DNA of 64,000 nt, from NCBI GenBank assembly GCA_020852715.1, contig JADZAE010000060.1, positions 8,786 to 72,785 on the forward strand, read 5' to 3'. This DNA comes from Deltaproteobacteria bacterium. GTDB taxonomy: Bacteria; Bdellovibrionota_C; UBA2361; SZUA-149; JADZAE01. Position 1 is the stretch's first letter. Each line of letters opens with the position of its first letter. The notes below the pieces were generated by a model that saw only the letters and a program-made list of their open reading frames with translations, made no database searches and had not been told where the DNA came from. This document shows, one piece after another, positions 2,360-61,267 of this stretch. The translations under genes and the position numbers were made by a program.

Positions 2360-2530
2360 AAAATGCCGCGGGCGACTTGGCGCGCGTGGCATGATCTGGA
2401 GGCTGCAGGCCCGAAGATCTGACGCGCCGGCGACACAGTTGTTCGCTGACGCGCACAACATGTATCCGCGCTTCACAAGCGTTTGTAAAATTATTTACCA
2501 TCGTGGCGGCGTGGCCGAGGGTGTTAGCGT
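2360..2530. repeat. GC-rich intergenic repeat, copy A. Carries the conserved core and the 3' module 'cttcacaagcgtttgtaaaattattt…cgtggcggcg' shared with copy B.
   Basis: A local GC spike in an AT-rich genome. Both 'ggcccgaagatctg' and 'cacaagcgtttgtaaaattattt' are shared almost exactly with 14745-14932. Core 'cagttgttcgctgacgcgcacaacatg' is shared with copies C, D and E. Confidence 0.7.
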
Positions 2531-5486: not shown

Positions 5487-5534
5487 ACGTACAGTCGGAT
5501 CCGCACGCAGTTAAATTAGCAACAAAGTAGAGTA

Positions 5535-5729
5535 TTACTGCTTAGGCTGAATTTTCTTACCGTAGGAAATTTCGCCTTTATCTATGCGTAAGGAAAAGCC
5601 GCAATCGGGGTTTGTGCAGGCCCATGCCTTATAGGTGACAGCAGCGCCATCCTGACCATAATCAGACAAGGGGATCAAAACTCCGTTATTGCACTTTAAG
5701 CAGCTAGGATATGATTTATTTTCCTCCAT
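5535..5729 (-). CDS. Small zinc-ribbon protein (YgiT-type-like, CxxC…CxxxxC).
   Basis: 64 aa with C-x2-C…C-x4-C. A truncated paralogous mini-ORF sits at ~51742. Confidence 0.45.
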   Translation of the reverse strand: MEENKSYPSCLKCNNGVLIPLSDYGQDGAAVTYKAWACTNPDCGFSLRIDKGEISYGKKIQPKQ

Positions 5730-6392
5730 CTCACCACCACTTCAAAAGGAATGACTATTAATTAATAAATCCACAAATAAGGCATATATTTAAAAAGCAC
5801 CTCATGGGATGAAGCAATTTCGGCTCTCATATATCTGTCTGTGGAAAAAGGCAATATGTGCCTATATACTATTAAATTATATGGCTGTGGGAGAAGAACC
5901 AAAGCATTGGCTTTGGTATGATGTAAAATTCTTAGTATAACGTTGTAGTATCCCATTACCAAAAACTAAATTAACTTTTGAGCCGAAAAGCATAAATGCT
6001 TTCTATCTTTGTCCTAAGGTAATGGTATATTTTTGTTTGGCTCTTAATTCAGCCATCTATGGCTTAATTAAGAGCATTTTTGGGGGTGAATCGGGGTTTC
6101 GCCCCCGAGGAAACCATCCTTGGTTTCCTTTATACCGTACACAAAGATAGTATTACCTAGTAAAGCGCCGTTCAAATTGTTTTTTGCGTACGGTATAATT
6201 GAGCGAGGAGCTAGTATTTTTGAAGTTTACGACGAAAAAGTAGCTAACTGTCTCTCTCCTGAATAACTACTAAAAGGTTAGCAAATTCTTGACATTATTG
6301 GGTCAATTATGTAGTAGCCCCTCGCTAAATGTTGGGCCTTATTGATTTTTGTTAGTGAGGTAGAAATAAGTTAGCCGGGAAATTTATTTTGT

Positions 6393-6467
6393 TGGGTGGT
6401 CGCCAAGTGGTAAGGCACCTGGTTTTGGTCCAGGCATTCGGGGGTTCGAATCCTCCCCGCCCAGCCA
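6393..6467 (+). tRNA. tRNA-Gln (anticodon UUG).
   Basis: Cloverleaf by eye: acceptor stem TGGGTGG/CCGCCCA, anticodon stem CCTGG/CCAGG with loop TTTTGGT, T-arm GGTTCGAATCC, and 3' CCA encoded. Closely resembles E. coli tRNA-Gln. Confidence 0.9.
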
Positions 6468-14744: not shown

Positions 14745-14932
14745 GGGTTTGGCATCTATGGCCCGAAGATCTGGCGCGCTAACGTTGATAATGTCAGCTA
14801 CCGTGTGCGGCTATGCCGCCAACTGCCGAGGATACGTGCGGCGCAGGCGAACCAGCTGTTTACAGCATGTCTCGCGTTCCACAAGCGTTTGTAAAATTAT
14901 TTGCTTCCGTGGCGGCGAAGGCGAGGAGGAAT
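14745..14932. repeat. GC-rich intergenic repeat, copy B.
   Basis: Shares its 5' and 3' modules with copy A. The core carries an internal deletion relative to A, C and D. Confidence 0.7.
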
Positions 14933-16852: not shown

Positions 16853-17935
16853 ATGAAAAACATAATGTTAATTTTCGCTATGGCCTTGCTTCTAACAGGC
16901 TGTAATTCGGGGTTTCAGAAAATGGAAGCCGGAGAGTATGGCGTGCGATTTCGAGCCCTGCCTGCAATGTTGGGTGGCGGTATTTCAAAAAATGTCATTG
17001 CCCCGGGAGAAATGGAATTTATTTATCCTTGGGAAACAATTTATCGTGTGGATACCACAGTGCAATCTATCGGCTGGGGAGGAATGAATCAGGGAGAGAA
17101 CAAAAGTCAGGCAGATTATATTCATACTCGAGCAAAAGATGGTAACGAAGTTGGTCTAGCTATTAATACCCAATTCCATATAGATCCCAAAATGGTTAGT
17201 CATGTTGTGCAGTATGTGGGCATAGATAAAGTTAAGCCACTTGTGGCTGCGGTAGCCCGAGCTGATGTGAGAACACACATGAACGCTTTGTACACTTCCG
17301 GGTTTATTAATCCAAATGAGCGAAGTGAAGTATTAAAAGCGGTAAAACATGCTATTAACCACCGTTTGTCCCGAGAGGGAATTATAATTGATGAGGTTAT
17401 TTACGTCGACCATCGCTTTGAAAGAAAATTGGCCGATGGGCAAATTGTGGATAAATACCAGCAAATAATCGATAATACGCAAGCTAAGCGCCAAGAAGTT
17501 CTCAGAGAACCCAAGCAGCGTGAAGCACAAATCAAAGATAAAGAAAAAGCATTCTTTGATGCACAGGCCAATGTTAATAAACTTTTAGAAGAGGCCAAAG
17601 GCTATGAAGCCCAAGCCTCGATGCGTGGTGAGAATTATCTAAAAGAAAAGCAAAATGTGGCTGATCAGATATTGGCTACCGGGCTAGCTGAGGTGGAGGG
17701 ACTAAAGAAACAGGTGGCTGCTCTAAGCGGAGAGGGAGGAAAGGCCTTATTACGTCTAAGTATCGCTCGTGAGCTAGCGCAGAATGATGCTAAGTTCGTT
17801 ATGCTTAATACCGGTGACAAGGGAAATGCCTTTGATGTCAATCGTGTGGATAGCAACGAGTTAATTAGACAAATGGGATTGGCTACAATGGCGCAAGAAG
17901 CTGTGAAAACTGAGAAAGAAAATGAAAAGAAATAA
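16853..17935 (+). CDS. SPFH-domain lipoprotein; partner of the upstream SPFH protein.
   Basis: Lipobox LLLTGC, an SPFH-like region and a coiled-coil C-terminus. The 3' end overlaps mdh by 14 nt. Confidence 0.5.
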   Translation: MKNIMLIFAMALLLTGCNSGFQKMEAGEYGVRFRALPAMLGGGISKNVIAPGEMEFIYPWETIYRVDTTVQSIGWGGMNQGENKSQADYIHTRAKDGNEVGLAINTQFHIDPKMVSHVVQYVGIDKVKPLVAAVARADVRTHMNALYTSGFINPNERSEVLKAVKHAINHRLSREGIIIDEVIYVDHRFERKLADGQIVDKYQQIIDNTQAKRQEVLREPKQREAQIKDKEKAFFDAQANVNKLLEEAKGYEAQASMRGENYLKEKQNVADQILATGLAEVEGLKKQVAALSGEGGKALLRLSIARELAQNDAKFVMLNTGDKGNAFDVNRVDSNELIRQMGLATMAQEAVKTEKENEKK

Positions 17936-18851
17936 AATAGCTTTAATCGGCGGCGGTAATATCGGCGGCAATCTTGCTTATTTGTCCTGCATTAAAGAGT
18001 TAGGCGATATTGTGCTTTTTGATGTTGTCGAAGGCATGCCGCAAGGTAAAGCGCAGGATATTATGCATGGCGGGGCTATTTTTAATTCCAGCGTAAATGT
18101 TACCGGCACAAATAACTTTGCTGACATTGCCGGTGCGGATGTGGTGATAGTTACGGCGGGCATTCCGCGCAAGCCAGGCATGAGCCGCGATGATTTAATT
18201 GCTACCAATGCCGGAATCATGAAGGCAGTAGCCAAGAACATTAAAATCTATGCGGCCAATGCTTTTGTCATAGTTGTCTCAAACCCGCTTGATGCTATGG
18301 TTACGCTTTGTCAAAAAGAAAGTGGCTTAGCACCGAACATGGTTGTGGGTATGGCCGGCGTGTTAGACTCGGGCAGATACCGCACATGGTTAGCCGAGGC
18401 TCTTAATACTTCACCGGCTTCTATTCATGCCTTGGTTTTAGGTGGGCATGGCGATGATATGGTGCCGATTCGCTCTAAAACAACTGTAAATGGAATTCCC
18501 GTGGAGAGTTTATTAAGCACAGATAAACTAGATGCTATCGAAAAGCGCGTTTGTGGCGCCGGTGGGGAAATAGTGGCGTTATTAAAAATAGGCTCGGCGT
18601 TTTATTCTCCCGCCGCAGCAGCTATTGAAATGGCTGAGAGTTATTTAAAAGATCAAAAGAAAGTTCTTCCCTGCGCGGCTTATCTTACCGGGCAATATGG
18701 AGAAGAAGGAATTTATCTTGGCGTGCCGGTGAAAATCGGTGCCGGGGGGGTAGAGAAAATCATCGAAATAGATCTAACTGCTAAAGAGAAAGAAGCTCTG
18801 TCCACCAGTGCCTCGCGCGTTCGAGAGTTGGTCGCTCTGTTGCCAAATTGA
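17922..18851 (+). CDS. mdh: Malate dehydrogenase (LDH-like family).
   Basis: KIALIGGGNIGGNLAYL Rossmann fold, GIPRKPGMSRDDL and NPLDAMV. Confidence 0.9.
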   Translation: MKRNKIALIGGGNIGGNLAYLSCIKELGDIVLFDVVEGMPQGKAQDIMHGGAIFNSSVNVTGTNNFADIAGADVVIVTAGIPRKPGMSRDDLIATNAGIMKAVAKNIKIYAANAFVIVVSNPLDAMVTLCQKESGLAPNMVVGMAGVLDSGRYRTWLAEALNTSPASIHALVLGGHGDDMVPIRSKTTVNGIPVESLLSTDKLDAIEKRVCGAGGEIVALLKIGSAFYSPAAAAIEMAESYLKDQKKVLPCAAYLTGQYGEEGIYLGVPVKIGAGGVEKIIEIDLTAKEKEALSTSASRVRELVALLPN

Positions 18852-18868
18852 AGTTTCGTATAGCAATT

Positions 18869-19269
18869 TTAGGGTATGCGGCGCGAGAGTCTTATACACA
18901 AGTTGCTCACTAAGAATGTCGTTTTTAATTTTGCTACAAAATGACTATACGCAACAAAAGAGATGTCCTCTGTGGAGCGCGAGCCATGTTGCGAAGCGAC
19001 TGGGTCGCTTGAGGATCGCGGAAAAACTGTATTTCTCGGCATTAGTCGCCACATTTAAGGTCATTGGGAAACCGACACGGAGGCGACCCTGTTGTTCGCT
19101 CGCGCTCACATCATGGGTCGCGTTCCACAATACGTCATGCAAATTTAGGAGTTCGTGGAGCTCACGCTAGAGCCTCTTGAAGGCGCTCTTTCACGACTTG
19201 TGTATATGAATCAGCGTTCTGCGTGCCCTAAGCCTACTTGATGAATAGGTGTTATTTTGCTATACGCAA
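18869..19269. repeat. MITE-like GC-rich element, copy C. It fills the whole mdh-ndk intergenic region.
   Basis: Imperfect terminal inverted repeats: ttagggtatgcg…tatacacaagt (18869-18903) and acttgtgtata…gcgtgccctaa (19196-19231). A direct repeat attttgcta[+9]tatacgcaa (18928-18954) matches attttgctatacgcaa (19254-19269). Conserved core at ~19087-19125. Confidence 0.6.
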
Positions 19270-19303
19270 GCCTCTAATTTTTAAGGAAAATAAGGAGTGT
19301 ATT

Positions 19304-19711
19304 ATGGCTATTGAAAGAACTTTATCTATTGTTAAACCTGATGCGGTTAGAAGAAATTTGATTGGCAAAATTATCGATCGCTTTGAGAGTAATGGTTTAA
19401 AAATCGCAGCTATGCGTATGCATCATTTGTCGAAAGCCGAGGCAGAAGGCTTTTATGCTGTGCATAAAGAAAGGCCTTTTTATGCAAGCCTTTGTGAGTT
19501 CATGACTTCCGGTCCAGTGGTTATTTCTGTGCTGGAAGGTGAGGGAGCTGTGCAAAAGAACCGTGATATTATGGGCGCTACAGATCCTAAAAAAGCTGCA
19601 TCTAATACAATCAGAGCAGACTTTGCTGAAAGCGTAGAGGCAAACTCTGTGCATGGTTCTGATTCTGTGGAAAACGCTAAGATCGAGATATCCTTCTTCT
19701 TCCCACAGTGA
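19304..19711 (+). CDS. ndk: Nucleoside diphosphate kinase.
   Basis: [15 protein letters not shown]…, [17 protein letters not shown] upstream of 19304; the ORF-track start at 19238 lies inside the repeat. Confidence 0.9.
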
Positions 19712-23587: not shown

Positions 23588-23589
23588 CG

Positions 23590-23770
23590 GGCGTAATCGT
23601 TCACGCTTTTGGCCGACTACTTTGTCAGACATCGTGGGTCGAGAGCCGCTTTTGGGCTCTTGAATTGCTCCGCGAGTAGTTCGCTACACTACCGAATGGC
23701 TTCGGTTCTTGCTGAGAAGATAGCGAGTTCTTAGCTTTAAGAACCTTCGACGAGGGTCGCATAAGGATCC
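23590..23770. repeat. GC-rich repeat-like segment immediately after the response-regulator stop.
   Basis: GC-rich block with partial similarity to the left module of copy C (catcgtgggtcg vs catcatgggtcg). Confidence 0.35.
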
Positions 23771-24089
23771 TCAATTGGTGCTCGCCACTCGTCTTTAAAT
23801 AAGGAATATGCAGTTGCTCCTTTATTATTGTTAGCTGCTAGATGTGCTTCTAATGTCGCACCGCGCCTCGTATTCGGCTCAAAATCGCGACGGTTACAGG
23901 TTATTTAAAAATATAAATTTTTATCTCTTGATATGTTGTAAGTAGCTGCTTCCTCACATATTAATAAGTCGTCAACGAATACTAACGGGCAGTCATAAGC
24001 AAAATTCACGAATCCATCAAATACGTTACTTGAGAATATTCCGCGTAAGCGCCGGGTGCGGTAGAGCCGAAATAAGGAGATGCTACATA

Positions 24090-24235
24090 TTTTTGACAAG
24101 TCAGCGTTCCGCTTTGCTTCACTACTATCATGCGCACCCAGTAGCTGCCGCGGGCATGTGACGCGTAGGTGAGTCCGTTGTTGTCTAACGCTTACAACAT
24201 GGGTAGCTAATACTAGAATTCATTAAATACGTGCT
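24090..24235. repeat. GC-rich repeat, copy E.
   Basis: The segment ctatcatgcgcacccagtagctgccgcggg matches 33185-33215. Core ccgttgttgtctaacgcttacaacatgggtag at 24176-24210. Confidence 0.55.
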
Positions 24236-25003
24236 TCGGAAACATGTGTGTGAGGCTTAACCACTGTCTGTCAGCCGTGGCCGCAAAACTCTAAAAAAAA
24301 TCGATATAATCAGATGCTCACATACCTAACCTTATAAATCGGAAAAAATCTTTTATAAATGATACGCAAAATTTATGTTTAGCCATAAAGGTGCGGTAAA
24401 TACGGTGCGTTAAATACTTTGAGTGTTTGTTGCTGCGTTGGCAATGAACGGTTTTATATCTAATTTAACTAGAGGTTATATGAAGAAAAAATTAATATTT
24501 ATGTTAGCATTGTTGGGAGTAGTTAGTGCAAATATCAATTAGGCGTATGCTCATCCGGGTAATTATCGTTGCTATCCTGTGGCACCCCAGATTAAACTCG
24601 TGCCTAAAGTAATGTCTAGTCCAGATCCATTCCTGTTTTATCTTCCGACAACGGCAGGCTAATGTAACATAGAGTATCTAAATGCATCACAATTGAATAG
24701 TGGCTACCTAAATGGCAGGGAGTTTAAAAAAGGTTTATTATCAATACTCAGGGAAACTTACTAAAAATACATCTTATGGACCAAAAAGTGTAATTTTTTA
24801 AGATTTTAAAAATTCGAATGGTGGCTTAGTTGCCTGGTAGCCAAAGGATATATCTGCGGATTCCGAAGAGGAGGGAGCGAAACTTTGTGAAGCATATAAT
24901 ATAGACGAGGCTGAACAATTTGCAAAAAAATTTAGACGCACAATAATAAATAAGTGCAGTGCCTTGAAATAGTTATCTAAAAACAAAAATAGATGCTCCG
25001 ATG

Positions 25004-25045
25004 GCGCGGTAATGTTTTTAAAATATTACCGCGCTTTGTTGTTTT
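25004..25045. terminator. Bidirectional rho-independent terminator.
   Basis: Perfect 10-bp stem gcgcggtaat/attaccgcgc with a T-run on the plus side. Lies immediately 3' of the minus-strand gene ending at 25044. Confidence 0.6.
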
Positions 25046-26069
25046 ACGAAATCTGCTCTTGTGCGGGTTTGGCGCTTTCCATAATTTTGCCTTTTAGCTT
25101 GGTGAATTTATCGCTAACTTTGGTTAGCACTTGGTCCAGGTCGAGGTTGATTGGCTGATTCTGAGCATTTTTATGAAAGGTTAGCGCCACCATTACTAGG
25201 AATATTGGGTGCAGTATTGCGGCGCGGACACCGGCGGTAATGGGGATAGCGATGACCCAAGCAAAACTTGATAAATCCCCGGGTAACATCCACGAGATGA
25301 TGTAAGCGGGGATAAGGGCAATAAGAAAGACAATGCCGGTAATCACATATTCGATAACTAAGGCGGTGACGGCTGTTTTGAGGATAGGTTTAACATTTGC
25401 CGCATAGTAAACAAGACCGTCAGCTGAAGAGCGCCAAACATTTTCGTCACCACGGGCGAGGGTATAGCTCATAATTGTCTCATCAATGAAAGTTGTGGCG
25501 TTATCAACTATTTTGTGAACAACATTCATGATGCTATCCATGCCGGGGATAGGAAGAATATTGCTAATCCAGTCCAACGTTCCGTTGAAAGCGCGAGCAA
25601 CTCCCGTGACAATAGAATCTAGGGCAAACATGACATTGGTTTGCGCAAATCTTTCAGTGACAATTTTTTTGCCGTATTCGACTTGATTAATCCCGGCTGG
25701 TAGCTCACCGACAGTGATTAGCTTTGTCAGCACGGCGACATGACCGGCTTTAAGCATGTAAAGAACATATTGCTTTAGCCAGTAAAAAATTCCGGCCGGT
25801 GCGCCAATAGCAATGATGAAGAAAATAACACCGCCACCGCCTTTGTCGTCTTTTCCGGAAAACAGATAAGCTATGCCAAAACAGAGTGCCGCCCAGATAA
25901 CAGCAGCTATGGTAAAAGCCAGATAAGCCCCGATTCGCATGAGCATGTATGGCAGGGTCTTCATACAGAGATTAAATGCTGCCATGAAGCCTTCCTCTTT
26001 GAAGATTACTGGGTAGCTATGTCTTACTGCTAGATCGGGATGAGAATAGGATTGTGTCTGCTCGTTCAT
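25044..26069 (-). CDS. Hypothetical polytopic membrane protein.
   Basis: Multiple TM helices. The start is uncertain. Confidence 0.45.
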   Translation of the reverse strand: MNEQTQSYSHPDLAVRHSYPVIFKEEGFMAAFNLCMKTLPYMLMRIGAYLAFTIAAVIWAALCFGIAYLFSGKDDKGGGGVIFFIIAIGAPAGIFYWLKQYVLYMLKAGHVAVLTKLITVGELPAGINQVEYGKKIVTERFAQTNVMFALDSIVTGVARAFNGTLDWISNILPIPGMDSIMNVVHKIVDNATTFIDETIMSYTLARGDENVWRSSADGLVYYAANVKPILKTAVTALVIEYVITGIVFLIALIPAYIISWMLPGDLSSFAWVIAIPITAGVRAAILHPIFLVMVALTFHKNAQNQPINLDLDQVLTKVSDKFTKLKGKIMESAKPAQEQIS

Positions 26070-33129: not shown

Positions 33130-33330
33130 CAACGGGTGGGCGCGATAGCGCCGGTCGCCCCTACGAATTGCGAAGCATCGCCAAGGCAATACTGCTGTCA
33201 TGCGCACCCAGTGCGGCAGCAATATTTTGTAGGCCGATCGCGCTGACGCGTGCTGCCCTAAAGTAACGCATTTGATGGATTTGTGTTCAGGCACCGCGTG
33301 TGCCCAAAAATTGCCGCGGGCGCCATTTCC
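33130..33330. repeat. GC-rich repeat, copy F.
   Basis: ctgtcatgcgcacccagtgcggcagc matches copy E. Contains GC-rich palindromic segments. Confidence 0.5.
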
Positions 33331-51959: not shown

Positions 51960-52448
51960 TTATGGCTGCTCTGCCAGTTGCTTCTGGTCTAACAGCCACT
52001 TGGCTTCTGGGCGGTTAAGCTCGTTGACTTCTTTGAGCATAGCAGCCACCAATTCCTCATCGGACAAGTTACGCGCCACAATGTCTGACGCTATCCTTGC
52101 GCCGGTGAAATTGGGGTCAAAACCGGACGCTTCACCGAGGAAGTGAAGGCCCAAATTTCTTTTCCCCTCCTGAAATCGCTGTACACCTTTGACGATGTAG
52201 TAAAATGCCATTTCAGGCTGCTTGACGCCGTCGAAATAACTGCGATCCAGCAATGCCCAGTAGAGACTGTAGTCGGAGTTCTTCAGCGCTAATGAAGATT
52301 TCGCTATCCGATCGCTTACCGACATATTCCAGTGCGCGCCAATCAGAATCAAAACCCCTAAGACGGCCATCACAACAGATGGCCCAAAATATACCTTCAT
52401 ACTCTCGAGACGCATTTTTGTTGTTTTGACCTTTGACAGGTTGCTCAT
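51960..52448 (-). CDS. Hypothetical single-TM protein (paralog of 51161..51661).
   Basis: GGAGG SD 6 nt upstream of the ATG at 52448. One TM helix. C-terminal …VNELNRPEAKWLLDQ…. Confidence 0.55.
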   Translation of the reverse strand: MSNLSKVKTTKMRLESMKVYFGPSVVMAVLGVLILIGAHWNMSVSDRIAKSSLALKNSDYSLYWALLDRSYFDGVKQPEMAFYYIVKGVQRFQEGKRNLGLHFLGEASGFDPNFTGARIASDIVARNLSDEELVAAMLKEVNELNRPEAKWLLDQKQLAEQP

Positions 52449-52905
52449 GATAAAACCTCCTTCTTTTGTCTCCCTGAAACTCAGGGGCATAACCTTTACT
52501 CCACTTCATACAGCTCTTTTAGAAGGGCTGCATGAATGTCATATATCTTCTGCTCTGATTTTAGTAATGATTTAGGGGCACCTTAATATTACCGTCCTTT
52601 CTTGTCAAGATCTAGGGCAATTAAGAACATAACTAATACAGCGCCGAAGATATCCTTGTTTTATAGGGCACTAGCTGGCCTTTCCCACATGCACATAAAA
52701 AGTGCATGAAGAGGGTTCAAAATCTAGCTATAAATTCCACGAGCGGGGAGGTTTAGTGCGCGAATTGATAGCTATTTTTCCGAAGCTGCTTTCATTGACG
52801 GACATAGTTTAAGTGGGTAAAACGCCCGCTATTGCTGCGAGCTTTAGGGCACATGCGGCATTAAAATTTTTAATTATATCTATTAACTGTAGAACGAGGT
52901 GTTTG

Positions 52906-55185
52906 ATGGAAAAGGCAAGCTTAACTGAGGCAGCTTTAGCGGCAAAGAATGTTAAAGCGGGGGAGACTTCCAGCGACGATTATTCGTTGCCGACTTTGCC
53001 TAGCGATGACATTCGCCAAATCATGTGGCGCTATTCTGATCGCTACGATTTTCAAATGATGGTGCAATCGGCGCGCTCAGTGGCGCGTGGGTTGGTTGCC
53101 AATCTAGTTGCGCAAGGTCAGCGCAATACTCATGAGTGGACTGAGGAGAAGAACACCTTGCTTAAGGCATTTGATGAATCCGGCATTACCTCGATGTATA
53201 TGAATATGGAGCATGGAGGATTTATTCCGGGGCCCAAAAACGTGGTGCTTGCTTTGGTGGCTTTTGAGCTGGCTTGGGTTGATGGCGGTGCGGCGACCTG
53301 CTGCTTAGCGACTAACTTGGGGCTTTCGCCAATTGCTGCTTGCGGAACCCAAGAGCAAAAAGATCATTATATGAGCTTAGCTGCGGCTAAGCCTGCTGGA
53401 GATACACGTCCGCATTGGCGCGCTGCTTTTAACTTAACTGAGCCGCTGCCTTATGTGGGCGTAGAAACGGGTATGCTCAACGGTAAGATTCGCATCGTTG
53501 AGTGGGAGAAGGGTAAAGAGCCGATTATTCAAGTGGAAAAGCGCGGTCGCTTTATCACCAATATGGACTTTGCCAAGTTTGTTACGGCGGCTGTTGATTC
53601 TGCTGATGAGAAAATCAAAGGAAGCTGCATGGTCATCATTCAAGAAGATGACCCGGGTGTATTTGACCGCGGTGCTGTCACTAAGAAAATGGTGCATCAG
53701 CTCTCTTCGACGCGCGACCCGATATTTAGTATGCGCGTTCCGGCTAGCCGCATCATCGGTGGCTACAAGGTCGTTGATGGCGTGATTATTCCTAATTGGA
53801 GCCACAGCGATATTTTGGAAAACGTTTTCCGCCGCACACGTGTGCCTGTGGGCATTATGACTTCAGCTAAATTGCTCTCTGCAGTTGAGCCGATTATCCG
53901 CTATCAGCGCACACGTTTTCGCGGTGCTGAGAGCATTAATCCGGGTTCACCGCGCTATGAGTTGGGCATTCAGCTAAAAGAAGACTCACAGCATCGTCTA
54001 ATTGACGTTTGGTCATTTGGTGAAGCCGGCGCTTCTTTAGGCTTCTGGACAGAGCGCGTACTTGATGATTTCGACGCCGTAGAAGAAGCCAAAAACGAGT
54101 ATTTTAAGTCACAGGGGATAGACACAGCGCGCGCACAGATGCGTGCTATGGCTGCTGTAGAGAAAGAAGCTAGCGAGCTAGTGAACCTTGAAGTCATGGG
54201 ACAAAAAGATAGCCCGCGCTACTCTGAGCTAAAAGAAAACATTTTAGTAAACTTCGTCGCTTATGATGCACTGTTAAATGTGCTTTGCCCCGCTGTTAAG
54301 CTCTGGAATACTTCCACGGGAGCGACAATGCTTAGAGAAGCTGTGTCTTTGATGGGCGGCTACGGCATCACTGAAGATTGCCCGGGATTCTTGATGCAGA
54401 AGTGGATCGATGCTCAGCTGGAAGCTACTTACGAAGGGCCGGAGTCAGTGCAGCGCCGTCACTTGGCTGCTACTATGACTAACGAAGTTTTCTTAGCCAC
54501 GGTAAAAACTTGGGTTAAAGAAATGCGCGTGATCGCTAATCAGCGCCCGGGCACAGGAGCTTGCGCGCTGGGAACAGCTATGCAGCTTTGGTTAGAAACT
54601 ATTAACTACGTGAAAACGGCAAAAGATGCTGATGGTTCGAAGATGTATAGCGGCACACGCCAAGGCGTTTCTTTTCCACTTGCTGATGCGCTTTGCTGGC
54701 TATTAGCGGCTCGCGCTTTAATACTAGATACTATTGAGCTTGAGGAAAAGGGCGGCGCTAATCCTAACATTGCTTCGGGCTTAGAAGGCTATACGCGTTT
54801 TTACACAGACATGTGCCATGTTCTCGCAGCGCGCGCTACCGGTGAGTCGGCGCGGCTATGTGCTGATATCGTTTACGGCTATCGCCGCCATCCGGCATGG
54901 GACAGCACGACTCCGGCCTGCTGCTATTCGATAGGGGATTTGGACGCTTTGGATTCTTTGATTCCGGGCATTGGCTCTACAGCCAGCGCTTGCACTGATG
55001 TTTCCGAAGACGGCAAGCATCCGATTAAAGCAGGTCCTTGTGCTAACTGCGAAGGCATTGAGAAAATTACTGTTCTTCGCGCTAAGCTTGATCGCTGCAC
55101 TACTGGTAGCCGTTTAGCTAAAGATCGTGCGGCTGTTGCGCTAACCAAGGTCATGATTCCTGAGGCGCTGGATTATCCGAAATGA
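52906..55185 (+). CDS. Long acyl-CoA dehydrogenase (FadE-like: ACAD core plus C-terminal extension).
   Basis: An ACAD C-terminal signature (…MGGYGITEDCPGFLMQKWIDAQLEATYEGPESVQRRHLA…) at ~residue 500 of ~760, then a ~250-aa C-terminal domain. A GAGGTG SD precedes 52906. Confidence 0.75.
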   Translation: MEKASLTEAALAAKNVKAGETSSDDYSLPTLPSDDIRQIMWRYSDRYDFQMMVQSARSVARGLVANLVAQGQRNTHEWTEEKNTLLKAFDESGITSMYMNMEHGGFIPGPKNVVLALVAFELAWVDGGAATCCLATNLGLSPIAACGTQEQKDHYMSLAAAKPAGDTRPHWRAAFNLTEPLPYVGVETGMLNGKIRIVEWEKGKEPIIQVEKRGRFITNMDFAKFVTAAVDSADEKIKGSCMVIIQEDDPGVFDRGAVTKKMVHQLSSTRDPIFSMRVPASRIIGGYKVVDGVIIPNWSHSDILENVFRRTRVPVGIMTSAKLLSAVEPIIRYQRTRFRGAESINPGSPRYELGIQLKEDSQHRLIDVWSFGEAGASLGFWTERVLDDFDAVEEAKNEYFKSQGIDTARAQMRAMAAVEKEASELVNLEVMGQKDSPRYSELKENILVNFVAYDALLNVLCPAVKLWNTSTGATMLREAVSLMGGYGITEDCPGFLMQKWIDAQLEATYEGPESVQRRHLAATMTNEVFLATVKTWVKEMRVIANQRPGTGACALGTAMQLWLETINYVKTAKDADGSKMYSGTRQGVSFPLADALCWLLAARALILDTIELEEKGGANPNIASGLEGYTRFYTDMCHVLAARATGESARLCADIVYGYRRHPAWDSTTPACCYSIGDLDALDSLIPGIGSTASACTDVSEDGKHPIKAGPCANCEGIEKITVLRAKLDRCTTGSRLAKDRAAVALTKVMIPEALDYPK

Positions 55186-55257
55186 AGCTACTTGGCTATT
55201 TGTTGTTGTGGCAAGTGGCAGAAAGATAGGTAAAATTAGAAGGTAAGAGGGTAGGGC

Positions 55258-57108
55258 ATGGCACAGGTAGAAAGGCAGAAATTGGAAGCGGATATTGTTT
55301 GCGTAGGCATGGGGCCGGCAACAGGCGGCTTTTTAACTACGCTAACTAAAGAAATCTCCGAGCATCAAGGCGAGAGCTACCTAGATAGCAAAGTCATGCC
55401 GGGTATGCCGCTACAGGTTCTCTGCTATGAACGCGCCGACGATATGGGTTTTGGTGTTTCCGGTGTGGTCTCCCGCGCACGCGGCATCAAGCAAAGCTTT
55501 CCTGATATTGACTGGAGCCAGATTCAAATGGCTGCTCCGGTTAAGGGCGAAAAGCTTGCTTATCTATTAGACCCCATTGGGGCAAGTTGTCGCTCTGGGC
55601 TCTTTAAGTTCAGTGATACGCTGATTCGTAGCCTCAAAGCTGTTCTTCCTTACAAAGACGAAGCTCTGGAAATGCCTTTCATTCCGCCGTTTATGGAAAA
55701 GCACGGAGGGGCAGTGTTTTCGATCGGCCAGTTTAACCAGTGGGTAGGCATGAACTTGATGAGTTCAGGGCAGGTGCAGATCTGGCCGGGCATGCCTGTA
55801 GAAAAGCCGCTGGTGGAGAATAAAAAAGTTAAAGGCGTGCGCTTGGTCAATCAAGGTGTGGAGAAAAGCGGCGCCGAGACTGAGATGTTTATGCCGGGCA
55901 TGGACATAGAAGCCGCGCTTACTGTGGTGGGCGATGGACCGGTAGGCGCTGTCGGGCAGTATTTGGACGAAGAGTTTGGTATGCCCCAGGGGCATCACAA
56001 GCATGAGTGGGCTGTGGGCATGAAGTTCGTCGTGCAGCTTCGCGATGATGTGGACTTGGAGCCGGGTACAGTGTTTCATACTTTCGGCTATCCTGAGCCG
56101 GAGGTTTTTGGCTTCATGTATATATATCCGGGTAAGGTGGCATCATTAGGGATTTTCATTCCTTCTTGGTTTGATAATCCGGTGCGCACAGCTTACCGTT
56201 ATTTGCAACATTGGATGATGCATCCTTATATTTGGAAGCATGTAAAAGGCGGCACACTAAAGTCTTGGGGTGCTAAGTCGCTGCAAGAGTCGGGCATCAC
56301 AGGGGAACCGCATCTTTGTGGCGATGGCTATGCGCGCATTGGCGAGGGGTCAGGCAGTACAAACGTGCTCACCGGCTCCGGCGTGGATGAAGCGTGGACT
56401 ACGGGAACTCAGTTAGCTGAAGGCGTGATTGAGTTACTAAAAGCCGGAAAGCCTTTTACCAAGGAGAATTTAGAAGCAACTTATGTGGCGAAGCGCCGCG
56501 CAAGCTGGGTGCAGGAAGAGGGTAAAGTTGCTGAGAAGTCGCGAAACGGTTTTAGCTACGGAGTTATTCCGGGGCTAATCGGTATGTCGCTAGCCGGGTT
56601 TTCTAAAGGGCTACTGAACATTCCGGCCAAACTCGTCGCGCCGCATAAACGCTACAAGAGCTTGGAGCAGTATTTTGCCGGCAAGCTTTCAGTGCAGAAG
56701 ATCGCCGAGATCAGAGAGATCTGCAAAAAAGCTAATAAGACCATACATGATGAAATTATGAATGCATGCGGGTGGCCGGAGATTCCCTATGACGGTACGC
56801 TACTGGTAACTCAGCAAGATGCTCTACTGATAGGCGGTAAGGTGCAGGCTCAAGGCGGCTTCGCTGATCATGTAGAGTTTATCGATACAGATATTTGCAA
56901 AGGCTGTGGTATGCAGGTGTGCGTAGAGATTTGCTCGGCGCAGGCTATTGCTCCGGGCGAAGAAGGGGTGCCAGTGTTTGATCGCGAGAAGTGCGTGCAT
57001 TGTGGCGCTTGCTTGTGGAACTGCTCGCAAGAGTTACCGCAGGGACACGGTGTCACCAACGTGAAGTTCGGCGCCGGCTGCGGCGGCCTGCATAGCGTGG
57101 AGAATTAA
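55258..57108 (+). CDS. Electron-transfer flavoprotein:ubiquinone oxidoreductase (ETF-QO; FixC-FixX-like fusion).
   Basis: FAD-binding N-terminus (DIVCVGMGPATGG) and a C-terminal 4Fe-4S ferredoxin-like cluster (CKGCGMQVCVEICSAQ…CVHCGACLWNCS). Confidence 0.85.
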   Translation: MAQVERQKLEADIVCVGMGPATGGFLTTLTKEISEHQGESYLDSKVMPGMPLQVLCYERADDMGFGVSGVVSRARGIKQSFPDIDWSQIQMAAPVKGEKLAYLLDPIGASCRSGLFKFSDTLIRSLKAVLPYKDEALEMPFIPPFMEKHGGAVFSIGQFNQWVGMNLMSSGQVQIWPGMPVEKPLVENKKVKGVRLVNQGVEKSGAETEMFMPGMDIEAALTVVGDGPVGAVGQYLDEEFGMPQGHHKHEWAVGMKFVVQLRDDVDLEPGTVFHTFGYPEPEVFGFMYIYPGKVASLGIFIPSWFDNPVRTAYRYLQHWMMHPYIWKHVKGGTLKSWGAKSLQESGITGEPHLCGDGYARIGEGSGSTNVLTGSGVDEAWTTGTQLAEGVIELLKAGKPFTKENLEATYVAKRRASWVQEEGKVAEKSRNGFSYGVIPGLIGMSLAGFSKGLLNIPAKLVAPHKRYKSLEQYFAGKLSVQKIAEIREICKKANKTIHDEIMNACGWPEIPYDGTLLVTQQDALLIGGKVQAQGGFADHVEFIDTDICKGCGMQVCVEICSAQAIAPGEEGVPVFDREKCVHCGACLWNCSQELPQGHGVTNVKFGAGCGGLHSVEN

Positions 57109-57109
57109 A

Positions 57110-57312
57110 TATTAGATTGGGAGCGCGACCCATCTTTAGTAGCGGAGCGGAGAAAGTGGGCGCCTGCGGTTTAAGTTAGTTCGGCGGGTGTCGGCGGAGG
57201 CCGCTATTGCTGTGCTGCGCAGTAGCGTTTTGGCAATGTTCTGCGTCGGTGACCCAGTTGTTTGCTAGCGCTCACAACATGGGTGAGCGTTCCATAAAAC
57301 GCGGCGGGTGGT
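57110..57312. repeat. GC-rich repeat, copy D, inserted between the ETF-QO stop codon and its terminator, flanked by a perfect 18-bp direct repeat.
   Basis: atagcgtggagaattaaa occurs at 57092-57109 (gene 3' end including the stop) and at 57313-57330. The core ccagttgtttgctagcgctcacaacatgggtgagcgttcca is at 57262-57300. Confidence 0.75.
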
Positions 57313-57334
57313 ATAGCGTGGAGAATTAAACGTA

Positions 57335-57368
57335 AGGGCACGCTGCGCGTGCCCTGAACAAATTTTTA
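57335..57368 (+). terminator. Rho-independent terminator, presumably of the ETF-QO gene, displaced by the repeat insertion.
   Basis: Perfect palindrome agggcacgc-tgc-gcgtgccct followed by gaacaaattttt. Confidence 0.6.
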
Positions 57369-57399
57369 GATGTTAGAAAATAAACCAAGGAGATAAATC

Positions 57400-58212
57400 G
57401 TGAGTAATGCTTATTCGATAATTGTCTGTGCAGGCTTGGCGCCTGATCCGTTACAAAGGCTTGAGCCCATGGATACACCTACTGGGCCGGCGCTTAAAAA
57501 CGAAATGATGCTTCCTGCTGTGCTTGACCCGTGGGCGGCTTGCGCATTGTATGAGGCTGATAATCTAGCCAAGAAACTGCCGGGCTCTAAAGTTTACTTG
57601 GTGAGCATGGCGCTTAAGACAAAGCTCCAGCAAGTGATGATGGTGCTTTCGCAAAAAGTGCCTTTTGAGCTTGTCGCTATCGATGGGCCAAGTAACGGTT
57701 TTACTGATGCTCGCGAGTGTGCCTCAGAGCTTGCCCAAGCTATAGAAGCTATTCCCGGACTGGATAAGGACAAAATGCTTTTGTTCGGCGGTTGGGAGTC
57801 GGCTACCCGCGCCGCGGGTGCGACCATGCAAATACTTGGTGAGAAGCTAGGCGTTGTCGATCAGTTCCAAGGCGTGGACAAAATTGAGATTGAACCAAGT
57901 GGAGCGATTAAACTCTGGGAGCGCGTAGAAGGCGGAAAACAGCAAGTGTCACTTTGTGAAAGCGCTCCGGTGATGGTTGGCTGGGCGACAGGCGAGCTGC
58001 CTGAGCCACCAAATAATCCGCAAGTTGGTATGGCGAACATGCGCACAGTGATGCCGGCGTTACAGAAGGCAAAATCTGCCGCCGCGAGCAGCTCAGCACT
58101 GAAGTTTAAGGGAGTAACTTTACCGGCGCAGGTGCGTGAAACGCGCATTGAAAAGGACATGCCGGTAGAGGCTATCGCTCAAGAGTTAGTAACATGGATC
58201 AGGGGGAACTAA
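57400..58212 (+). CDS. etfB: Electron transfer flavoprotein beta subunit.
   Basis: Typical ETF-beta (FixA) N-terminus and overall pattern. Tightly coupled to etfA. Confidence 0.8.
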   Translation: MSNAYSIIVCAGLAPDPLQRLEPMDTPTGPALKNEMMLPAVLDPWAACALYEADNLAKKLPGSKVYLVSMALKTKLQQVMMVLSQKVPFELVAIDGPSNGFTDARECASELAQAIEAIPGLDKDKMLLFGGWESATRAAGATMQILGEKLGVVDQFQGVDKIEIEPSGAIKLWERVEGGKQQVSLCESAPVMVGWATGELPEPPNNPQVGMANMRTVMPALQKAKSAAASSSALKFKGVTLPAQVRETRIEKDMPVEAIAQELVTWIRGN

Positions 58213-58214
58213 GC

Positions 58215-59243
58215 ATGGATAAGATTTTATTAATTGCCCATACAGAGGCTAATGGAAGTTTAAGCAAAGCCTCATTAGAAGCACTGACCTGTGCTAAAGA
58301 TTTAGCTGCCAGCCTAAGCACTACTTTTGCTGTAGGCGTGTTTGGCGAAAACACAGCTAAGGCGCTTGAGCAAATCGGTTCTTGCGGAGCAGAGAAGTAT
58401 CTAAGCGTGTCCGGTGCTGATTTCAAAGACGCGCGCTACGCAACTGACTCTTATGCCGTAGAAGGAATATATAGAAAGGCGCAAGCTTCTATTGTTATAG
58501 CAGCAGGCACTTCGCGTATGAACCGCGTGATACCGGGTGTTGCGCACCGCGTTGAAGGTGTAGCCGAGCTGCATGTTAGTAGCATTGCCGGAAGCGCTAC
58601 CGAGCTAACGGCAACTCGCTGGCTATACAGGCAACGCATAGAGGCCGTTATAACACGCGCCAGTCGTCCTTGGTTTTTGGGTGTTGATTCTGGGAACTAC
58701 ACTGCATGGACTGGTTCGACATCAGCCGTAACAGCTGAAAGCGTTGCGACTGAAGCTCCGGCGGCTTGTAAGCGCAGCAAAGTTGTGGGCCTAGAGTCAC
58801 CGGGAAGCGGCGAGCAAACTATTAAACCTGATGCTGAGCTTCTCATGGTTGCCGGCGCCGGTTGGACTAAGAAACAAGCTGACGGCACAGTACACGCGCA
58901 AGAAGCCCGTAAGACTATTTTGGGCTTCTTATCCAAGAGCGGAGCTTCCCTAGGTGGCTCTAAAGCTATGGTCGATTTGGATAGCGAAAACCGTGAAGCC
59001 TTCAACTTCATGACTCACCTAAACCAAATCGGTCAGACAGGCACCTCGCCGCGTCATCAAAAAGGGCTATCCACCTGCTGCCACGGCGAAGAGCCGCACG
59101 CAGTCGGCTGGCGTTTCATCAATGAGCGGCGCGCCGTAAACCTTGACGCCAACTGCGGCTGGGCCCGCGGCAAAGCTGACGTACTCTATGTCGCTGATGC
59201 TTTTGCTGTTATGGCTAAGGTAAATGAGCTATTATCTAAATAA
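58215..59243 (+). CDS. etfA: Electron transfer flavoprotein alpha subunit.
   Basis: ETF-alpha FAD-binding C-terminal region (…AGAGWTKKQADG…, …VLYVADAFAVMAKVNELL…). AGGGGG SD. The ORF-track start at 58194 overlaps etfB. Confidence 0.8.
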   Translation: MDKILLIAHTEANGSLSKASLEALTCAKDLAASLSTTFAVGVFGENTAKALEQIGSCGAEKYLSVSGADFKDARYATDSYAVEGIYRKAQASIVIAAGTSRMNRVIPGVAHRVEGVAELHVSSIAGSATELTATRWLYRQRIEAVITRASRPWFLGVDSGNYTAWTGSTSAVTAESVATEAPAACKRSKVVGLESPGSGEQTIKPDAELLMVAGAGWTKKQADGTVHAQEARKTILGFLSKSGASLGGSKAMVDLDSENREAFNFMTHLNQIGQTGTSPRHQKGLSTCCHGEEPHAVGWRFINERRAVNLDANCGWARGKADVLYVADAFAVMAKVNELLSK

Positions 59244-59308
59244 GTGGGGGATTTATGCTAGGTGGCGATTTAACTTCAGGGCAAATTTTTTATTGAGGTG
59301 CAGCCATT

Positions 59309-59797
59309 TTGGGCGGCCTATTTTTCATGGTTCGCGTGTTTATTATGTTTGCTGCGGGGTTAGATAGCGACGCTAAGTCAGGGCATGACATGGACTCCGA
59401 ACATGGGGACATGTCGGCATCTGACTTAGCCTTTAAAGCTTTGTCGCTTCAAGGTATCTCAGGTTTTGTCATGATGTTTGGTATTGTTGGGCTGGCGGCC
59501 GATCTTAGCTTAGCTAAGTTTGGGGCGGAGAGGGCAAGTATAGCCTCATTTATTGCAGCTATGGTAGCGGGTTGTATTACCGTTTGGCTAATCAAGATCA
59601 TTTTTAAATGGGCGGACAGGCTCCAATCCAGTGGCACTCTCAAGTATGAAAGTGGCATAGGGCAGACGGGAACTGTTTATTTAAGTGTGGCTAAAGAAAA
59701 ACCCGGAAAAATTCAGGTTAATGTTCAGGGCCGTTTAATTACGGCAGATGCTATTACGCGTAGTGAGGAGCGAATTGCAACTGGCGAACATATATAA
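59309..59797 (+). CDS. NfeD-family membrane protein (flotillin partner).
   Basis: N-terminal TM helices plus a C-terminal OB-like soluble domain. Sits upstream of the flotillin gene. Confidence 0.6.
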   Translation: MGGLFFMVRVFIMFAAGLDSDAKSGHDMDSEHGDMSASDLAFKALSLQGISGFVMMFGIVGLAADLSLAKFGAERASIASFIAAMVAGCITVWLIKIIFKWADRLQSSGTLKYESGIGQTGTVYLSVAKEKPGKIQVNVQGRLITADAITRSEERIATGEHI

Positions 59798-59899
59798 AGT
59801 CGTAGATATATCCGACGGTCGATACGTAATTGAGAAAGTGTAAGTAAAACTCAACCTTATAAGATTTTTTAATCCAACACAAAACAAAGGAGATAAATC

Positions 59900-61267
59900 A
59901 TGTTAGCTCTCTTAGCTGGTGATGCTTGGTTATTTGCAATCGTATGTTTTGTATTCTTAATTTTTAGCATTTTGTTTTTTTTAGCATCACGCTACAAAAG
60001 GTGCGCCTCGGATGAGATATTAGTAGTATACGGAAAGGTTAGGGAAAACCAGTCGGCGCGCTGTATTCATGGTGGTGGCGCTTTTGTTTGGCCGCTTATT
60101 CAAGAAAGCTCGTATATGAGCTTAACGCCGATGATTATTACTATCCCACTGGAGAATGCCCTGTCTTTACAGAATATTCGTATTAATGTGTCCAGCACAT
60201 TTACAGTCGGTATCAGCACTGAGCCGGGCATTATGAATAATGCCGCTGAGCGTTTATTACGCCTTGAGCCCAGACATATTGAAAATATGGCTCAGGAAAT
60301 CATCTTTGGTCAGCTGCGTTTAACAGTGGCCTCGCTAACCATTGAGCAAATTAACCAAGATCGCGAGAGTTTTTTGGAGTCTATTCGTAAGAATGTTGAG
60401 CCTGAACTTAATAAGATCGGCTTATTTTTAATTAACGTAAATATTACCGATATCACAGACGGTTCTAACTATATTGAGAGTATTGGTAAAAAGGCGGCAT
60501 CAGAGGCGGTGAATACCGCCAAAGTTGATGTAGCCGAACAGAATAAAATCGGTGCTATTGGTGAAGCTGTAGCCAATAAAGATCAGATCATTCGTGTTGC
60601 CGAGAATATGGCTGAAGCGGCCAAAGGACAAAAAAGAGCCGAAGCTGATAAGCGCGTTTATTTAGAGGAGCAAGAAGCAGAAGCTGTAAAAGGCGAAAAG
60701 GCGGCTGATGCGAGCAAGCGCGTATTTGTGCAGCAACAAGAAGCCGAAGCCATTAAGGGCGAAAAAGCGGCTATCGCTGACCAACGCATTTATGTTCAAC
60801 ACCAAGAAGCTTTGGCTATTGACGGAGAAAATAAAGCTGAAGCACAGATTGCTGAAGCCAACGCCATCCTGGCCATGCGCCAAGCCGAAGCTTTCCAAAA
60901 AGGTGAGGTGGCCAAACGCCAAGCTGAGGTGGAGATCAATAAGGCTCAATATTTAGCTGAAGAGCAGCGTTTGATTGCCGGTGAAGTTGTTAAGCAAGAA
61001 ATTGAAAAGCGTAAAGTGGAAATCGATGCTGAGGCTATGGCCGAGAAGATTAGGCGCGAGGCTAAAGGTCAAGCTGACGCTTTTTTGGCTAAGTATGAAG
61101 CTGAGGCCAAGGGTATTCGACAAGTGCTGGAGAGTAAGGCTGCTGGTTATGAGTCTTTAGTGCGTAGCTGTAACGGTGATGCGCAGTCAGCTTCTACGCT
61201 GTTGTTGATCGAAAAACTTGAAGGCATAATAGGCAAGCAAGTCAATGAAAGGAAAAGCGCCAATTGA
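59900..61267 (+). CDS. Flotillin / SPFH-family protein with tandem 22-aa EA-type repeats.
   Basis: N-terminal TM, SPFH core, then ~4 repeats (KRAEADKRVYLEEQEAEAVKGE / KAADASKRVFVQQQEAEAIKGE / KAAIADQRIYVQHQEALAIDGE …). Confidence 0.8.
   Translation: MLALLAGDAWLFAIVCFVFLIFSILFFLASRYKRCASDEILVVYGKVRENQSARCIHGGGAFVWPLIQESSYMSLTPMIITIPLENALSLQNIRINVSSTFTVGISTEPGIMNNAAERLLRLEPRHIENMAQEIIFGQLRLTVASLTIEQINQDRESFLESIRKNVEPELNKIGLFLINVNITDITDGSNYIESIGKKAASEAVNTAKVDVAEQNKIGAIGEAVANKDQIIRVAENMAEAAKGQKRAEADKRVYLEEQEAEAVKGEKAADASKRVFVQQQEAEAIKGEKAAIADQRIYVQHQEALAIDGENKAEAQIAEANAILAMRQAEAFQKGEVAKRQAEVEINKAQYLAEEQRLIAGEVVKQEIEKRKVEIDAEAMAEKIRREAKGQADAFLAKYEAEAKGIRQVLESKAAGYESLVRSCNGDAQSASTLLLIEKLEGIIGKQVNERKSAN

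Follow-up and report, generated by a model that had tools for sequence, protein, structure and literature searches.

What kind of element fills the spacer between mdh and ndk in an uncultured bacterium, and where does it begin and end? The spacer in question (452 nt, 18852-19303) lies in a 64 kb stretch of a metagenome-assembled genome (MAG) of a Deltaproteobacteria bacterium (contig JADZAE010000060.1), which is called the window here and is the scope of all searches described as window-wide. It holds copy C of a sequence that recurs at other places in the window. The original prediction treated copy C as a MITE, a miniature inverted-repeat transposable element, bounded by imperfect terminal inverted repeats of about 35 bp, accompanied by a 15-bp direct repeat and with ends that share sequence with host terminators. 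The analysis described below supports a different boundary model, and we judge, with moderate confidence, that copy C is a decayed, nested, full-length palindromic member of a dispersed, non-coding mosaic repeat family of MITE- or ERIC-like type. The family is new, belongs to the familiar kind of small palindromic intergenic repeats and represents no new mechanism.

Copy C is an imperfect palindrome that extends from 2 nt past the mdh stop codon to 33 nt ahead of the ndk start. The calculated minimum free energy (MFE) of its plus strand (18853-19271), folded as RNA, is -159.1 kcal/mol compared with -122.7 +/- 5.2 for shuffled sequences (z = -7.05), and that of the minus strand is -134.5 kcal/mol (z = -4.24). 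The MFE structure is made up of 97 long-range pairs arranged in nine helices (Table 1). Global alignment of the left half with the reverse complement of the right half gave 125 identical columns out of 178 (70%) and a score of 55 versus 15.4 +/- 5.3.

The inverted segments singled out previously are part of this structure. The strings quoted for them are present where they were placed, and the two arms align as TTAGGGTATGCGG--CGCGAGAGTCTTATACACAAGT against TTAGGGCACGCAGAACGC-TGATTCATATACACAAGT, with 28 of 37 columns matching, among them all six at TTAGGG and all 11 at TATACACAAGT. The score of this alignment (26, against 15.1 +/- 2.1 for shuffles) was equalled in only 2/2000 shuffles, so that the inverted repeat is real; the window repeat search recovers only a 17-nt, 88% part of it. 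As element termini, however, the arms do not hold, because pairing runs outward to 18853/19271 and inward to 18972-19000/19091-19128. Since the arms correspond to helices 2-4 within a longer palindrome, the inverted repeat is the middle stretch of that palindrome and not an element boundary.

Much the same applies to the direct repeat. It exists, as exact blocks of 9 nt (ATTTTGCTA, 18928-18936 and 19254-19262) and 10 nt (CTATACGCAA, 18945-18954 and 19260-19269), and is more than chance, although the insert in the left copy is 11 nt rather than 9 and the right copy is 16 nt long. Its geometry does not fit the target-site duplication of an arm-bounded unit, as one copy is found on the inner side of the left arm and the other beyond the right arm, where it pairs with 18853-18866. 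We found that TTGCTATACGCAA and its near-palindromic relatives occur four times in copy C in alternating orientation, which explains the direct repeat together with the inverted pairs I1 and I3.

We defined the sequence common to the copies by self-comparison of the window and with a profile built from the copies (nhmmer). Five copies, A to E, hold a core of ~50-80 nt, in each case on the plus strand, with nhmmer E-values of 1e-16 to 1e-21 and pairwise identities of 73-87% (blastn). A degenerate pattern derived from the core matches copies A, C, D and E, giving four matches where none are expected. The five cores within 64 kb have the core alone in common, the copies being scarcely alignable beyond it. 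The core includes an imperfect palindromic unit of ~40 nt, and the modules of the family recur in varied combinations and orientations. Likenesses of the core to integron attC sites, dif sites and tRNA-like sequences were considered and rejected on sequence grounds.

The position of the core bears directly on the boundaries of copy C. It ends ...GCGTTCCACA at 19133, 63 nt inside the predicted right arm, and overall lies 60-150 nt inside the arms, whereas the arms were expected to recur at the ends of the other copies. They are missing from copies A, B and D, and TATACACAAGT does not occur window-wide outside copy C. A MITE ending in these 35-bp repeats, with a target-site duplication of 15-16 bp and with ends that mimic or capture host terminators, is in our view very doubtful. 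The significance of the inverted repeat, the exact blocks of the direct repeat, a string common to the right end of C and the left end of E (AGCAAAAT..CAC..AT.CATCAA, 29/1000 shuffles) and the recurrence of TTAGGGCACGC-like strings at a hairpin beside copy D and at fragment F all speak for it, but the pairing far outside and inside the arms, the placing of the direct repeat and the absence of the arms from three copies speak against it, as does a profile of the end module of E and F, which matched the right end of copy C no better than E = 6.1 window-wide and 0.12 when the search was restricted. A common end module tying the outer arms of C to E and F, appealing by eye, was dropped because this unbiased profile test was not significant. 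What remains of the MITE-like reading is a family that looks insertional and has inverted arms; the proposed boundaries and target-site duplication do not remain.

Where, then, are the inverted repeats of the family? The core of copy C, which forms its inner right arm, has a diverged inverted counterpart on the left. Over 47 nt this left arm shows 70% identity with the reverse-complemented right arm, with a local score of 29 that was equalled in 1/2000 shuffles. The left arm of copy D (57116-57168) is 72.7% identical to the reverse-complemented right arm of C over 55 nt (E = 4e-6) and 80% identical over 25 nt to the left arm of C, and the two ends of copy D match one another at 37/44 positions (z = 3.8). 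On the strength of these alignments the real inverted-repeat unit of the family appears to be an inner element (~18969-19133 in C, 57110-57312 in D) with arms of ~50 nt. Read from the tip, the arm consensus is TGTGGAACGCGACCCATGTTGTGAGCGC.AGCGAACAAC.GGGTCGCC; C and D carry it twice, in inverted orientation, and A, B and E carry a single arm. The tips read TGTGGAGCGCG (C-left), TGTGGAACGCG (C-right and B), TGTGAAGCGCG (A), TATGGAACGC (D-right) and ATTGGGAGCGCG (D-left); the inner inverted repeats of copy C have a TGTGG…CCACA tip, and the family end type can be written as TGTGGAACGCGACCCATG.

Table 1. Features of the mdh-ndk spacer, of its flanking genes and of the related loci in the window, in order of position. 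Helices are those of the MFE structure of copy C; predicted arms and direct repeat are those of the original prediction.
Feature	Coordinates	Strand	Remarks
Copy A core	2405..2488	+	solo core with 3' extension common to copy B; antisense to flanking sulfatase gene
Copy B core	14822..14894	+	solo core, 10-nt deletion in hairpin loop; antisense to flanking SpoU methylase gene
mdh (malate dehydrogenase)	17922..18851	+	upstream flank; open reading frame (ORF) of 309 aa; Pfam Ldh_1_N and Ldh_1_C
Copy C, entire	18853..19271	+	~420-nt imperfect palindrome filling the mdh-ndk spacer
Helix 1	18853-18866 / 19257-19271		14 pairs; outermost; inverted repeat I3 (13 nt, 92% complementary)
Predicted left arm (TTAGGGTATGC...TATACACAAGT)	18869..18903	+	helices 2-4, 5' side
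Helix 2	18869-18881 / 19219-19231		13 pairs
Helix 3	18882-18884 / 19214-19216		3 pairs
Helix 4	18887-18905 / 19194-19212		17 pairs
Helix 5	18912-18920 / 19182-19190		8 pairs
Helix 6	18922-18934 / 19139-19151		12 pairs
Direct repeat, left copy (ATTTTGCTA + 11-nt insert + TATACGCAA)	18928..18954	+	within left arm of palindrome, opposite 19134-19151
Helix 7	18941-18945 / 19134-19138		5 pairs
Copy C inner left arm	18969..19010	-	diverged inverted core, tip TGTGGAGCGCG; nhmmer minus-strand match 18971-19010, E = 4.7e-4
Helix 8	18972-18988 / 19112-19128		16 pairs
Helix 9	18991-19000 / 19091-19099		9 pairs
Copy C core (inner right arm)	19058..19140	+	nhmmer E = 4.3e-21; only part common to A, B, D and E; pattern match 19091-19115
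Predicted right arm (ACTTGTGTATA...GCGTGCCCTAA)	19196..19231	+	helices 2-4, 3' side
Direct repeat, right copy	19254..19269	+	16 nt; also 3' strand of helix 1
ndk (nucleoside diphosphate kinase)	19304..19711	+	downstream flank; Pfam NDK, E = 2.1e-57; Ndk of relatives aligns from 19304 (tblastn)
Copy E core	24144..24219	+	3'-truncated; imperfect direct repeats either side (24010-24026, 24216-24232; 15/17)
Fragment F	33191..33305	.	without core; modules common to E (33191-33220; 33240-33285, inverted); D-type hairpin 33290-33305
18-bp direct repeat at copy D (ATAGCGTGGAGAATTAAA), left copy	57092..57109	+	native 3' end of ETF-QO gene (codons HSVEN and stop)
Copy D	57110..57312	+	203-bp insertion; ~55-nt terminal inverted repeats (inverted core 57116-57168, core 57243-57301)
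Copy D core	57224-57307	+	
18-bp direct repeat at copy D, right copy	57313..57330	+	non-coding
Hairpin AGGGCACGC-TGC-GCGTGCCCT	57335..57355	+	beside copy D; the predicted 'terminator'

Copies A and B are alike beyond the core. They have in common a 20-nt upstream block, GGCCCGAAGATCTG[AG]CGCGC (2408-2427 and 14760-14779), and a 40-nt 3' extension, CAAGCGTTTGTAAAATTATTT...CGTGGCGGCG (2455-2520 and 14862-14926), with ~60 nt extra between the blocks in B, and form either a subfamily or a segmental duplicate. A candidate left arm in fragment F was not significant and was dropped, as was a map of 9-mers shared between the loci, which was swamped by chance matches.

Copy D lends independent support to mobility of the family. 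The ETF-QO gene next to it (55258-57108) encodes the Pfam ETFQO_UQ-bd and 4Fe-4S domains, and the C-terminus GGLHS[AV]EN is found in all of the ETF-QO homologues listed. The end of this gene is repeated perfectly (18/18, E = 2e-6) on the far side of copy D, with a score that none of 2000 shuffles equalled, and if 87% identity is accepted the repeat lengthens to 30 nt. ETF-QO and etfB are 291 nt apart here, compared with an 'empty' spacer of 23 nt in the closest relative (P0122, locus L019), which at 79% amino-acid identity allows a coarse presence/absence test. Copy D therefore has the appearance of an insertion with an 18-bp duplication across the ETF-QO stop codon, and for this reason the reading frame survives. 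Such a signature was sought at the other copies. No flanking direct repeat was found for A and B; that of copy E was equalled in 6/1000 shuffles, but its motif also occurs in the module common to fragment F and so it is not a clean target duplication. By analogy with copy D we also looked within the mdh-ndk spacer for a duplicate of the mdh 3' end or of the ndk leader, and there was none.

Copy D is also the place where the element ends had been linked to host terminators, through a hairpin that lies beside it. This hairpin is not a canonical terminator: it has the stem, but failed the terminator scan, its T-run beginning ~9 nt downstream of the stem. It is also absent from the 23-nt spacer of the closest relative. 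The likeness of TTAGGGYAYGC in the arms of copy C to the hairpin extends over 9-11 nt and was reached in 115 and 358/1000 shuffles, and is thus not significant; the idea of captured or mimicked terminators is not supported. Elsewhere in the window a hairpin of this type occurs only in fragment F, beside the modules common to E; the pattern has 3 matches compared with 0.17 expected, and the likeness between D-right and F was equalled in 2/1000 shuffles. Taken together, this gives the hairpin the look of one of the modules of the mosaic, and not of a terminator that was captured or mimicked.

Two observations concern the surroundings of copies C and D. The leaders of ndk (19262-19306) and etfB (57350-57402), which lie just 3' of them, have AATTTTTA...GAAAATAA in common ahead of the ribosome-binding site, with a likeness score of 22 that was equalled in 52/2000 shuffles and exceeds the scores against the leaders of 28 other genes; the stretch may belong to the repeat or merely reflect A+T-rich leader composition. 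The region that contains copy D and the acyl-CoA dehydrogenase, ETF-QO, ETF-beta and ETF-alpha gene cluster (52001-60000) has a G+C content of 0.49-0.50, against 0.41-0.44 elsewhere.

Several points weigh against copy C belonging to an insertional MITE/ERIC-like family. A convincing flanking duplication is present at copy D only, and even there the repeats are offset by 6 nt and 11-15 nt from the recognisable arms, the tips of which are ATT and TAT rather than TGT. No flanking repeat was found at the inner arms of copy C, where 1995/2000 shuffles do equally well. There was no transposase among the 38 window ORFs scanned, no copy beyond this contig in the collections searched and none at the loci of 11 relatives. 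With only five or six divergent copies, the termini of the element are not definable by consensus. Conservation is consistently higher in the right arm than in the left, and the solo copies all point the same way; uniform orientation and arm asymmetry are not predicted for a purely parasitic palindromic MITE. A further point, the possible skipping of sequence during assembly at the mdh-ndk locus, is taken up with the gene order below. As to matches elsewhere, blastn of the spacer against a plasmid collection gave none, and the core pattern GTTGTTNNCTNNCGCNYACAWCATG, which had 3 matches in genomes, 5 in metagenomes and 0 in viral contigs, was set aside as chance because agreement was limited to the positions of the pattern.

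The orientation of the cores raises the question of whether they are instead RNA genes or strand-specific signals. GC skew is positive window-wide except for one bin at 48-52 kb (-0.08), regardless of gene orientation, indicating that the plus strand is the leading strand. All five cores are therefore on the leading strand, for which the two-sided chance is 1 in 16 if orientations are independent. An explanation in which the core represents a family of structured-RNA or small-RNA genes, or else a strand-specific signal in the DNA, with the palindromes as RNA structure and the copies as paralogous genes, would account for this uniformity, for the better folding of the plus strand of copy C, for the retention of the right arm alone in the solo copies and for a conserved, imperfect core hairpin of 14 pairs, two of which show compensatory changes. 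We nevertheless consider it unlikely. No part of the window matched Rfam (Rfam 15) at the gathering threshold, and copies C and D had no match even at E <= 10; the covariation term of the core hairpin (+0.7) is not supportive; and strong structure is confined to copy C, with D marginal (z = -2.0) and A, B and E at shuffle level. Arm-to-arm mismatches in copy C comprise 13 G.T and 9 A.C, giving no clear RNA-specific signal; an excess of G.U over A.C as a sign of RNA-level selection was accordingly discarded as uninformative, and is also confounded by the strand mutation bias that the GC skew implies. The scans placed no promoter-like site beside C or D, and D bears an insertion signature. Finally, copies C and D are in the sense orientation with respect to their neighbours and A and B are antisense, and this mixture relative to transcription argues against a cis-acting mRNA element as the common function of the family.

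Uniform orientation with respect to replication is also what single-strand transposition on the lagging-strand template predicts, a process that is established for IS608-type elements. Palindromic units that form a REP/BIME-like mosaic and are spread by a RAYT-type (HUH) single-strand transposase would in addition be in keeping with the ~40-nt unit of the core, with the varied combinations of modules and with intergenic sites just 3' of genes. REP, BIME and REPIN structures are outlined in PMC2817692 as palindromic units that together with other short motifs build mosaic arrays at gene 3' ends, inverted pairs included. REP units, in contrast to the family here, are shorter, much more uniform and more numerous, and have no target duplication. 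An 18-bp flanking duplication such as that at copy D is unexpected for HUH transposition, the copies diverge far more than is typical of REP families, a conserved 5' tetranucleotide of the GTAG type could not be defined and no RAYT gene was seen in the window. These differences make this origin distinctly unlikely, and we retain the MITE/ERIC-like description of the family.

We next consider the genes around copy C. The Mdh protein encoded in the window matches P0001 ('MAG: malate dehydrogenase [Deltaproteobacteria bacterium]') at 100% identity; the next best match is 74% identical, and the named relatives belong to Bdellovibrionota/Oligoflexia. In all six of the related Mdh lineages with readable downstream DNA (loci including L009, L010, L011, L016 and L012-L017) sucC directly follows mdh, and the four lineages with enough sequence all have the order mdh-sucC-sucD-ndk(-rlmN) preceded by two Band_7 genes. 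Here the order is Band_7, Band_7, mdh, palindrome, ndk, rlmN. There is no sucCD in the 64 kb window, and tblastn found no coding remnant of sucC or sucD in the spacer or elsewhere in the window. From this comparison of gene orders, copy C appears to occupy the place of ~2.1 kb of lost genes (sucCD) within an ancestral operon. Their absence may be a real loss or relocation, or else a repeat-induced skip in the assembly of the MAG; either is possible, and the second adds to the points listed above against our interpretation.

The coincidence of palindrome and missing genes suggests a further possibility, that the palindrome is a local fold-back (inverted duplication) scar of the sucCD deletion and not an inserted element. 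The genes are missing exactly at the palindrome, which fills the spacer almost from stop codon to start codon and is flanked by no duplication, all as such a scar would have it. Both arms, however, hold the dispersed core that is present at four other loci, and copy D is likewise built of two arms, which are homologous to those of C. Since C and D are built alike, the two-arm structure is a property of the family and older than the mdh-ndk locus, which makes a fold-back origin highly improbable.

Under the preferred reading, in which copy C is a decayed palindromic member of an inserted repeat family, insertion of the units would have been the work of a transposase that was supplied in trans and cuts with a long stagger (18 bp at D), and later insertions, indels and recombination would have produced the mosaic. 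The element would have reached the mdh-ndk site with, or after, the loss of sucCD. Scans of the spacer for sigma-70 promoters and intrinsic terminators detected neither, and Pfam scans of its ORFs gave no match and no coding signal. Since copy C lies inside the ancestral operon and neither promoter nor terminator was detected, it would probably be co-transcribed, folding into an imperfect RNA hairpin of ~200 bp. By analogy with Correia and ERIC elements, this hairpin could set a processing or stability barrier between the mdh and ndk parts of the transcript.

The family shares several features with known MITEs. Copies C (~420 nt) and D (203 nt) are small and, going by the spacer ORFs, non-coding; inverted repeats are found as the inner arms of C and the ends of D, with one arm only in A, B and E; and the D site differs between relatives in the coarse comparison given above. 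ERIC sequences are non-coding, full-length imperfect palindromes of operon spacers or of sites immediately 3' of genes; they form RNA hairpins on co-transcription, vary in size through internal insertions and affect mRNA decay, and there is precedent for the cutting of MITE hairpin transcripts by RNase III or RNase E (PMC10969869). Copy C resembles them in being non-coding, intergenic and palindromic throughout. It differs in length (~420 nt, compared with ~127 nt for ERIC) and is unrelated in sequence; the copies of the family are far more divergent and mosaic than those of ERIC, one has an 18-bp flanking duplication and the cores are all in one orientation.

Correia elements are highly uniform, measure 100-155 bp and have 26-bp inverted repeats and a TA duplication. 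The present family, with arms of ~50 nt and an 18-bp duplication, has no conserved termini. In Neisseria the Correia (NEMIS) elements are small, intergenic and bounded by terminal inverted repeats, and their transcribed hairpins are cut within the inverted repeats by RNase III (PMC10969869). They are a plausible functional analogue for copy C in an mdh-ndk transcript. BOX elements of Streptococcus pneumoniae are presented as modular mosaics, and SPRITE as a repeat family that resembles rho-independent terminators, in PMC10969869 and PMC3049150; such a resemblance is what the original prediction had in mind. SPRITE, BOX and RUP are unrelated in sequence to the family described here, the hairpin of which has no adjacent T-run.

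A source for the transposase may be sought among the insertion sequences (IS). A duplication as long as 18 bp is out of the ordinary. To our knowledge, few IS groups have target repeats of 15-17 bp, and the ISTde1 subgroup of the IS1202 family is among them. Repeats of this length, ends that begin TGT and members in Deltaproteobacteria are described for it in bioRxiv 10.1101/2022.12.17.520857, where MITE derivatives of the IS1202 family are not mentioned. The 18-bp repeat at copy D and the TGTG arm tips in A, B and C are similar, whereas no such transposase is encoded in the window. The connection to IS1202/ISTde1 is a lead only, as the tips of D differ from TGT and its repeats are set apart from the arms. 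A more elaborate scheme can be drawn up, in which a non-autonomous element with unusually long, IS1202-like staggered cuts (18 bp, maybe up to 30 bp) lands in the last codons of essential genes without truncating them, one arm is kept on the leading strand for a host function that it has acquired and a 200-bp RNA hairpin has replaced sucCD and sets the relative expression of mdh and ndk; we give this scheme little credence.

If our interpretation is correct, it adds a repeat family from a barely sampled lineage, a Bdellovibrionota/Oligoflexia-like MAG. Of modest interest are an 18-bp duplication that regenerates the stop-codon end of a conserved gene, an operon-internal hairpin of 420 nt where the succinyl-CoA synthetase genes have been lost and the leading-strand uniformity of the conserved arm. 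No long-standing question is opened, and the main practical value lies in the corrected boundary model and in the flagging of the sucCD loss.

Other features of the window were noted in passing. Long stretches without an ORF of at least 80 aa are found at 424-2161, 5487-6391 and 23588-25043 and as several gaps of 300-700 nt within 45.9-52.8 kb; many of the neighbouring ORFs have no Pfam match, and no further copies of the family were detected inside these stretches. Two further intergenic palindromes, at 52543-52557/52639-52653 and 62183-62197/62334-62348, are built on 15-nt inverted repeats (z = 4.4 and 4.8, arm against arm) and are unrelated in sequence to the copy C family. At 6040-6075, ~320 nt upstream of tRNA-Gln (6393-6467), there is a near-perfect palindrome of 36 nt with a 2-nt loop and 17-nt arms that are 94% complementary. 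Lastly, a 31-nt palindrome, GCGCGGTAATGTTTT/AAAATATTACCGCGC (25004-25034), is followed by a T-rich run just past the 3' end of the minus-strand gene at 25044-26069 and is probably a terminator.

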